A DNA stretch of 64,000 nt, from assembly GCF_003334355.1 (NCBI RefSeq), contig NZ_QOWP01000019.1; one strand, given 5' to 3'. The position numbers and the translations under genes are program-made. Below are positions 6,928 through 7,588 of this stretch, piece after piece. The notes under the pieces are model-generated. The model did not search any database. It was not told the origin of the DNA and saw nothing but the letters and a program-made list of their open reading frames with translations. The stretch comes from Escherichia coli. Its GTDB lineage: Bacteria; Pseudomonadota; Gammaproteobacteria; Enterobacterales; Enterobacteriaceae. Position 1 is the stretch's first letter, and each line of letters starts with the position of its first letter.

Positions 6928-7263
6928 CTACCCAATCAGTACGTTAATTTTGGCTTTAATGAGTTGTAATTCCTCTGGGGCAACTGTTCCTTTCTTCGTT
7001 GCTCCTCTTGCCCGCCAGGCGATACTTTTTACCTGATCAGCTAACGCTACGCCATCACGTTCCTGACCGGATAAAACAACTTCGAACGGATATCCTTTTG
7101 ATTGCGTTGTACAAGGAACACACAGACACATACCTGTTTTGTTGTTGTACATGAAAGGACTCAGGACAACAGCTGGACGATGTCCAGCTTGCTCGCTACC
7201 TTTTGTCGGGTCAAAATCAACCCAAATCAGATCGCCCATATCGGGTACGTATCGGCTTACCAT
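6928..7263 (-). CDS. mazF: Endoribonuclease toxin MazF
   Basis: 111-aa [60 protein letters not shown]. Confidence 0.97.
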   Translation of the reverse strand: MVSRYVPDMGDLIWVDFDPTKGSEQAGHRPAVVLSPFMYNNKTGMCLCVPCTTQSKGYPFEVVLSGQERDGVALADQVKSIAWRARGATKKGTVAPEELQLIKAKINVLIG

Positions 7264-7511
7264 TACCAGACTTCCTTATCTTTCGGCTCTCCCCAGTCGA
7301 TATTCTCGTGGAGGTTTTCCGGCGTGATGTCGTTGACCAGTTCAGCAAGCGTAAATACGGGCTCTTTACGCACTGGCTCAATAATTAATTTGCCATCCAC
7401 CAGGTCAATCTTCACTTCATCATCAATATTCAGATTGAGCGCCTGCATTAACGTAGCCGGGATCCGCACCGCCGGTGAATTTCCCCAACGCTTTACGCTA
7501 CTGTGGATCAT
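7263..7511 (-). CDS. mazE: Antitoxin MazE
   Basis: 82-aa [30 protein letters not shown]; 1-nt overlap with mazF start; SD gaggaaaggg upstream. Confidence 0.97.
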
Positions 7512-7534
7512 AACCCTTTCCTCAAACCGCTATC

Positions 7535-7575
7535 ATATGTAGATACAGTATATATCAATCTACATTGTAGATACG
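7535..7575 (-). promoter_or_regulatory. mazEF promoter region with alternating palindrome
   Basis: atgtagat (7537-7544), atctacat (7557-7564), tgtagata (7566-7573): the central arm can pair with either flank; lies just upstream of mazE. Confidence 0.6.
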
Positions 7576-7588
7576 AGCAAATTTCGGC

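Follow-up and report, generated by a model that had tools for sequence, protein, structure and literature searches.

Operator arms of the relA-linked mazEF module of Escherichia coli as proposed copies of a recurrent MazE box, and gene linkage as the probable outcome of an insertion

The analyzed window (the whole 64,000-nucleotide stretch of Escherichia coli DNA) carries on its minus strand, according to its open reading frames, the genes eno, pyrG, mazG, mazF, mazE, relA and rlmD. The initial annotation had placed mazEF directly after relA and ahead of mazG, an arrangement borne out by the open reading frame coordinates and by NCBIfam equivalog matches for all four proteins (Table 1): RelA scored 1678 bits against NF008124 (cut-off 728), MazE 196 bits against NF007312 ('antitoxin MazE', cut-off 113) and MazF 227 bits against NF007386 ('endoribonuclease MazF', cut-off 120), the last match covering residues 1-111. 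The antitoxin gene lies directly upstream of the toxin gene on the same strand, in the antitoxin-first, translationally coupled order typified by a one-base overlap. The mazE stop codon TAA (7265-7263) and the mazF start codon ATG (7263-7261) share base 7263 in the coding-strand string TAATG, exactly the single-nucleotide overlap that had been proposed. A Shine-Dalgarno-like GAGG (7523-7520) precedes mazE, and a promoter-like CTGACA-16-GACAAT (6888-6861) is found upstream of mazG.

In the E. coli module, the AbrB-type N-terminal domains of MazE dimers make the contact with the operator, and MazF dimers seated on the disordered MazE tails raise the affinity of the interaction, so that the complex represses the promoters P2 and P3, while Fis activates mazEF from a site just upstream. 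Since MazE is labile, its degradation sets MazF free to cut single-stranded RNA at ACA.

Table 1. Features of the relA-mazEF-mazG locus in the window (strand relative to the window as given)
Feature	Position	Strand	Description
relA	9823..7589	-	GTP diphosphokinase (ppGpp synthetase I); ORF of 744 aa; stop TAG 7591-7589; NCBIfam NF008124 equivalog; relA in the MG1655 annotation
Candidate Fis site	7589 to 7575	-	GGCCGAAATTTGCTC; directly upstream of arm c
mazEF cassette	7588 to ~6894	-	Promoter, operator, mazE, mazF and tail; delimited by alignment with empty alleles, where ~60 bp with a terminator hairpin stand in its place
Arm c	7566..7574	-	GTATCTACA on the coding strand; putative MazE box copy 1, forward; within the published 'c' oligonucleotide GTATCTACAATGTAGATTG
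Middle arm (arm 'a' of Marianovsky)	7558..7565	-	ATGTAGAT on the coding strand; putative box in reverse orientation; complementary to arms c and b
Spacer	7547..7557	-	TGATATATACT; holds the ATATAT palindrome (Zorzini 'a' site) and the -10-like hexamer TATACT (7552-7547)
Arm b	7537..7546	-	GTATCTACAT on the coding strand; putative MazE box copy 2, forward; directly after the -10-like hexamer
mazE	7511..7263	-	Antitoxin, 82 aa; AbrB/SpoVT-type DNA-binding N-terminal domain; NF007312 equivalog
mazF	7263..6928	-	ACA-specific endoribonuclease toxin, 111 aa; NF007386 equivalog
mazG	6857..6066	-	Nucleoside triphosphate pyrophosphohydrolase; TIGR00444 419 bits; NF007113 370 bits (cut-off 208)
aMEF (ameF, b4844)	7223..7622	+	Antisense RNA of the MG1655 annotation; starts in mazF, crosses mazE and the operator, ends in the relA 3' end

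The protein identities extend to solved structures. MazE was matched by PDB chains 1MVF and 1UB4 across all 82 residues (E ~5e-52, about 1e-52), and its residues 2-50 correspond to the solved MazE(1-50) construct (2MRN/2MRU), while MazF was matched by chain 3NFC across all 111 residues and by 1UB4 across residues 2-111 (E ~1e-73). PF04014 was present in MazE homologues, and the published DNA-contact residues K7, R8, W9, N11 and R16 (residue list: PMC4333400) are all present in the MazE of the window. Over the 741 bp tested (6900-7640), E. coli K-12 MG1655, whose annotation there shows mazF, mazE and relA, and many further strains showed 100% identity to the window; from this DNA identity to the K-12 genes and the full-length structural matches, we expect that MazF would cleave at ACA and that MazE would neutralize it and be protease-labile. 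The sense strand of mazEF holds 12 ACA sites where 10.3 were expected, that is, neither depletion nor enrichment. The annotated antisense RNA aMEF, absent from the initial annotation, tunes the expression of mazEF, and its function has been described (PMC8749433).

The spacer between relA and mazE measures 77 bp (7512-7588), and its three arms fall 16-52 nt past the relA stop TAG, within the 80 bp claimed beforehand. The arms occupy 7537-7544, 7558-7565 and 7566-7573, as first read, and the proposed ability of the middle arm to pair with either flank is perfect on both sides: ATGTAGAT (7537-7544) and ATCTACAT (7558-7565), 13 nt apart, are complementary at 8/8 positions, and ATCTACA (7558-7564) and TGTAGAT (7566-7572), 1 nt apart, at 7/7. 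Both inverted repeats share the arm at 7558-7565, which is what defines the middle arm of an 'alternating palindrome', and a 9-nt direct repeat (TGTAGATAC) recurs at 7538 and 7566 (28 nt apart). An arrangement of a 7-mer, its reverse complement and the same 7-mer within 45 nt occurs a single time in the 64-kb window, at the mazEF operator; dinucleotide-shuffled versions of the window yielded a mean of 0.14, and when the 77-bp spacer was shuffled 20,000 times, it arose once. With 6-mers the matches stay at chance level (4 observed, 2.2 expected), including those at window positions 26081 and 35381.

The candidate Fis site agrees with 10 of the 11 specified positions of the degenerate Fis consensus, which we take to be GNNYAWWWWWTRNNC, and is the sole match with at least 9/11 in the interval 7560-7700. 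Its placement at 7589 to 7575 is probable from this agreement, and the hexamer TATACT would likewise be the -10 element of P2; its counterparts in the aligned orthologues are TATAAT, TACAAT and TAGCAT. In E. coli no -35 hexamer was found 16-18 nt upstream of TATACT (CGTATC, GTATCT and TCGTAT stand there), so that the candidate Fis-like site may stand in for it. A generic promoter scan gave as its sole match here ATGATA-18-TATGAT (7536..7507), which overlaps the mazE start and was set aside, since the scan total (3) was at chance level (3.2 expected).

The locus does not differ in sequence from the E. coli K-12 chpA 'alternating palindrome' of Marianovsky et al. 2001 (J Biol Chem 276:5975), with which it also agrees in gene order, in the single-base overlap and in being flanked by relA upstream and mazG downstream. 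The middle arm, called 'a', has been described as complementary to the upstream arm 'c' and the downstream arm 'b', inside the promoters P2/P3 (PMC4803016, PMC3879964), with arm b overlapping the strong promoter P2 (PMC3879964). P2 and P3 lie 13 nt apart and the Fis site further upstream (PMC4803016, PMC3879964, PMC7167474), positions that we took, for the promoters and the Fis site alike, from secondary sources and our own inference. Published transcription starts place the arms within P2/P3 (PMC4803016, PMC3879964), in keeping with the earlier proposal that the operator is part of the promoter. The 'cab' oligonucleotide of Zorzini et al. 2015 (PMC4333400) corresponds to window positions 7577 to 7529 on the minus strand, bar its last base. 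The nomenclatures diverge: arm 'a' of Marianovsky et al. is ATGTAGAT, whereas site 'a' of Zorzini et al. is the ATATAT spacer (tested as the oligonucleotide TTGATATATACTGT; PMC4333400) and their 'c' fragment comprises arms c and a together. That work resolved three independent duplex sites for MazE dimers in the operator, with binding enhanced by MazF (PMC4333400). An operator of repeated or palindromic antitoxin sites within the promoter is thus present, its binding being known from the literature (PMC4333400).

Conservation within the species was assessed in 5426 complete E. coli genomes. The full mazEF region was present in 4416 of them, and the 42 bp across the arms were at least 99% identical in 4345 and 95-99% identical in 28 more. 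In five diverged strains (0.7-1.9% off K-12 across the locus) all arm bases were invariant, and SNPs were confined to the Fis-like segment and to the stretch past arm b.

Outside E. coli, we located MazE orthologues with 66-83% identity and aligned their upstream regions, which revealed the conserved cores T.TACA.TGTA.ATT and TGTA...ACA. Where E. coli has TGTATCTACA, the orthologues of Klebsiella, Enterobacter and Serratia (MazE 82-83% identical) show its reverse complement, TGTAGATACA, as the third arm; their arms a and b are direct repeats, giving the order forward-reverse-reverse (F-R-R). Four arms were found in Salmonella and in relA-linked metagenomic relatives, yet another arm order in Pseudescherichia, and tandem direct repeats in Nitrospira. 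Conservation is lowest in the ATATAT spacer, whose orthologous versions read CTATAA, GTATAA, CTACAA and GCTAGC; TA-N3-T is retained in them, a pattern compatible with a -10 element. The DNA-contact residues of MazE are conserved in the close orthologues, the sole change being K7 to R in Pantoea vagans. As judged from these alignments, the nearest orthologues outside E. coli have kept the individual boxes but not the either-flank pairing. Thus, the arm conservation on which the initial annotation had made its reading depend holds within E. coli; beyond it the boxes persist but the middle-arm topology does not.

A scan of one genome per species provided 80 more distant loci (MazF 51-77% identical; E. 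coli is not among them, and Pantoea, at 77%, is the only close relative), all of them with a MazE homologue upstream of MazF. The octamer GTATCTAC or its reverse complement GTAGATAC was present upstream of mazE in 40/80 loci (0.14 expected from shuffles), and GTA-N2-TAC in 45/80 upstream regions (2.0 expected). Most box copies lie 19-46 nt ahead of the start codon, and the taxa that carry them include Nitrospira, Beta-, Alpha- and Gammaproteobacteria and Actinomycetes, among others. The number and orientation of the boxes vary across the 40 loci (F 21, R 7, FF 7, RF 2, FR 2, FFR 1). In 23 of them a TTGnnn-16..18-TAnnnT promoter was found with its -10 ending within -6 to +10 nt of a box (random-anchor control 7.8 +/- 2.3); this full-promoter criterion was used because TAnnnT alone just upstream of the box was uninformative (18/40, control 17.8). 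Three-arm repeats were enriched in the 80 distant upstream regions at k=5 (25, with 12.0 +/- 3.1 expected) and k=6 (4, with 0.73 expected) and were absent at k=7, so that, going by these regions, an operator of three arms is not the rule across the family.

We reason that the three arms would be three copies, arranged forward-reverse-forward on the coding strand, of one MazE box, GTATCTAC(A). Considering that the downstream box directly abuts the -10-like TATACT, bound MazE-MazF would be expected to occlude RNA polymerase. The box is not new, as Chopra et al. 2013 (PMC3879964) had already described, on either strand, a 10-base repeat that includes a 4-base palindrome, in arms c and b, and their upstream motif of AbrB-linked MazF modules corresponds to the GTATCTAC / TGTA-N2-TACA box of the 40 distant loci; what we add is the explicit octamer, the orientation classes and the position relative to a sigma-70-like -10. 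Among the findings against the box model are these: the other 40/80 distant loci lack an exact box, and the best MazE affinity in vitro was recorded for the ATATAT fragment, which is box-free (PMC4333400, PMC4803016).

The latter finding invites the reading that the ATATAT palindrome (Zorzini 'a') is the dominant operator and the flanking arms are auxiliary, low-affinity sites. MazE binds TTGATATATACTGT specifically and MazF enhances the binding (ITC, EMSA and NMR; PMC4333400), its affinity for 'a' exceeds that for 'b' or 'c' (PMC4803016), and RfVapB2 recognizes the same ATATAT (PMC4333400). However, the measured affinities all lie within about tenfold of each other (0.5-5 uM; PMC4333400), the spacer is the part that varies most in orthologues whose MazE contact residues are unchanged, what it does retain (TA-N3-T) fits a -10 element, and the distant family conserves GTATCTAC, not ATATAT. 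We therefore regard ATATAT dominance as unlikely. Our own reading, which we advance tentatively and as one that could well prove wrong, is that the conserved MazE element is the GTATCTAC box at the -10/transcription start, not ATATAT, and that the alternating palindrome is an incidental arrangement of E. coli and its closest relatives. Were it true, 2MRU, the only structural model of MazE on DNA, would show a secondary site that is mainly the promoter -10.

As to the neighborhood of the module, 1007 of the 5426 complete E. coli genomes (~19%, including Nissle 1917 and an O25:H4 strain) lack mazEF and run from relA through ~95 bp to mazG. This empty allele carries, after relA, a terminator made of a hairpin with a 12-bp stem and a T-run (-14.6 kcal/mol, z -4.5), and the 35 nt ahead of mazG (~6893-6858) are common to occupied and mazEF-less alleles. 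On the minus strand of the window no terminator-like site was found in 7512-7588 or 6858-6927. Fraikin et al. 2020 (PMC7167474) reported the same polymorphism, namely an undisturbed relA-mazG operon in mazEF-less E. coli (e.g., UTI89); the exact cassette boundaries, the terminator hairpin of the empty allele and a duplicated relA end (below) are added here.

Orthologues with MazE 72-83% identical have other surroundings, namely islands, prophage remnants or unrelated loci: in Klebsiella and Enterobacter mazEF sits in an island with antirestriction, DUF1281 and DUF932 genes, in Salmonella it adjoins a P2-like prophage remnant, in Serratia and Kosakonia it lies among IS elements, and in Pantoea and Pseudescherichia it is part of unrelated metabolic loci. 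RelA or MazG was encoded within 3 kb in 0/80 of the distant loci. In two other Enterobacteriaceae lineages (~78% DNA identity) rlmD-relA-mazEF is colinear, which indicates an old insertion in that clade, and a linkage of such age could there be selected. At one metagenomic relA-linked locus parDE separates relA from mazEF, and a 54-nt duplicate of the 3' end of relA brackets it. This insert with its duplicated relA end singles out the 3' end of relA as a hot spot for insertions; parDE has also been found inserted at the same site in Salmonella, and Fraikin et al. reached the same hot-spot conclusion and reported no functional link (PMC7167474). The sequenced plasmids and phages gave no evidence of a K-12-type cassette, their collections holding MazE homologues at most 47% identical (the sole closer match in the plasmid set is a mislabelled E. 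coli chromosome).

Taken as a selected functional operon, relA-mazEF-mazG would couple ppGpp synthesis, a toxin and an NTP pyrophosphohydrolase. This view can draw on the terminator-free relA-mazE gap, on the published co-transcription from relA and mazEFG operon (PMC4803016, PMC7167474), on the colinearity in the two other lineages and on arms that are invariant in at least 4345 genomes. Against it stand the 1007 mazEF-free genomes in which relA, terminator and mazG follow each other, the location elsewhere of the closest orthologues (Klebsiella, Enterobacter, Serratia, Salmonella, Pantoea, Kosakonia and Pseudescherichia), the separation from relA and mazG in every distant locus, and a site that accepted parDE as well, with duplication of the relA 3' end; we thus consider such a coupling quite improbable. 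The patchy presence in E. coli and the unrelated contexts elsewhere point instead to a linkage that reflects an insertion hot spot. We propose that mazEF was inserted into a permissive spot at the relA 3' end and that the cassette may have displaced the relA terminator, which would agree with the read-through from relA that has been published; that mazEF is linked to these two genes would then be no sign of a shared mechanism with relA and mazG. The connection of the three enzymes that the initial annotation had singled out, while present in the window, is neither general in the family nor found in about a fifth of the E. coli genomes. It has long motivated models of ppGpp-MazF coupling, and we argue that it is an accident of hot-spot insertion.

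Altogether, the locus is very probably the canonical chromosomal mazEF (chpA) of E. coli, a type II toxin-antitoxin module that sits between relA and mazG as an insertion and carries an autoregulated promoter-operator of its own, with arms that are copies of a MazE box and a linkage that is the product of insertion. Earlier publications already cover the locus, its operator and Fis site, the antisense RNA, and the fact that mazEF occurs patchily among E. coli strains. The box and insertion readings would ease the design of clean operator mutants and of relocation experiments, which is of modest, specialist value and raises no new question.

The pairing of the middle arm with either flank follows automatically from a forward-reverse-forward box order, and, since the number and orientation of the boxes vary among homologues, it looks like a by-product; by these comparisons it is most likely just that, and not a functional DNA secondary structure. 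Awkward for a pure sequence-box model is the result that many palindrome mutations left MazE-MazF binding intact in the hands of Marianovsky et al., who concluded that structure matters more than sequence (as related in PMC4803016). Folding of the operator strand as single-stranded DNA gave energies no better than -4.1 to -4.3 kcal/mol (z -0.8 to -1.2), a stability equalled by 32-35 of 200 shuffles. That the alternating palindrome is, in line with the original proposal, a DNA structural switch, with cruciform-like alternative states whose shape and not sequence is read by MazE-MazF, appears very unlikely to us, for although both pairings are perfect and the arm arrangement is far beyond chance, the fold is weak, the c-a pairing has a 1-nt loop and cannot form in full, the topology changes between relatives (F-R-R, four arms, direct repeats), the box sequence itself is conserved across phyla, and biophysics gave three independent duplex sites (PMC4333400). 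The weak fold, the 1-nt loop and the independent duplex sites together favor protein-bound boxes.

Close comparisons are offered by Kis-Kid (parD, plasmid R1), PemI-PemK (R100) and the chromosomal ChpS-ChpB, which also combine a toxin of the MazF/PemK fold with an AbrB-type antitoxin, place the antitoxin gene first, and rely on autorepression through repeated or palindromic sites that is tuned by the toxin:antitoxin ratio (PMC4333400, PMC3879964). ChpS (34.6 bits) and ChpB (55 bits) match the proteins of the window below the NCBIfam cut-offs, and the plasmid MazE homologues are at most 46% identical to the MazE described here. The operators of these systems comprise two regions (I and II), whereas that of mazEF has three arms.

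Absence of mazEF was recorded in 1007 of 5426 E. coli genomes, Nissle 1917 and an O25:H4 strain among them. The empty allele closes relA with an intrinsic terminator composed of GCTGGATATGGCGTCAGCCGTATCCAGC and a T-run (-14.6 kcal/mol, z -4.5), one that the mazEF-bearing allele lacks. When one genome per species was scanned for mazEF homologues, E. coli was missing from the matches, and Pantoea agglomerans was the only relative above 62% identity; this suggests that mazEF is absent from the strain representing E. coli, and that few species representatives carry the K-12-type module.

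In one Enterobacteriaceae relative in which mazEF is linked to relA (L022), a 1.25-kb insert encoding parDE and one further ORF separates relA from mazEF, and it is flanked by two copies (87% identical; 2119-2172 and 3373-3426) of a 54-nt stretch of the relA 3' end. This repeat looks like a target duplication from an element integrating at the 3' end of relA. Three ORFs (227, 180 and 79 aa, without a match in Pfam) occur between mazF and mazG of a relA-linked relative, and a sister contig carries an IS605 OrfB/TnpB gene in the same space (L019 4391-5897 and L020 5470-6879); thus, the mazF-mazG spacer is also a landing site. In Pantoea vagans, mazE (66% identical) has no mazF downstream, its place being taken by two reverse-strand genes (Gp49-like and HI1420-downstream-like; L025 3501-4514). 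The antitoxin gene may have been orphaned here; alternatively, a swap of the module may have occurred.

Exact matches to the MazE box GTATCTAC number three in the window (vs 0.57 expected), two of them in the three-arm operator between relA and mazE, while the isolated copy within pyrG is consistent with a chance occurrence. Besides this box, many distant mazEF homologue loci (upstream regions of L026-L105) harbour a second palindrome, TCAACA-AT-GTTGACAC, which overlaps a TTGACA -35 element (e.g., L032, L091, L030, L039, L088, L027) and occupies a position equivalent to that of the palindrome formed by the upstream two arms (c and a) of the E. coli operator.

The operator is also spanned by the antisense RNA aMEF, which starts 40 nt within mazF, runs across mazE and the entire operator, and ends in the 3' end of relA. 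This RNA, which is published as regulating mazEF positively (PMC8749433), was not mentioned in the initial annotation. The RNA features called elsewhere in the window (from Rfam and ARAGORN matches) are all expected in this part of the E. coli chromosome.

Coordinates of RNA and sequence features in the window and in the empty allele
Feature	Location	Strand	Source or context
aMEF (b4844), antisense RNA	window 7223-7622	+	MG1655 annotation
Third exact GTATCTAC, isolated	window 5551-5558	-	inside pyrG
Strong intrinsic terminator directly after relA	L002 (mazEF-less E. coli locus) 2964-2991, in place of window about 6894-7588		empty allele
CsrB	window 20328-20687	-	Rfam/ARAGORN match
GcvB	window 38868-39073	+	Rfam/ARAGORN match
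ES036 sRNA	window 42089-42131	-	Rfam/ARAGORN match
tRNA-Met (CAT)	window 43559-43635	+	Rfam/ARAGORN match
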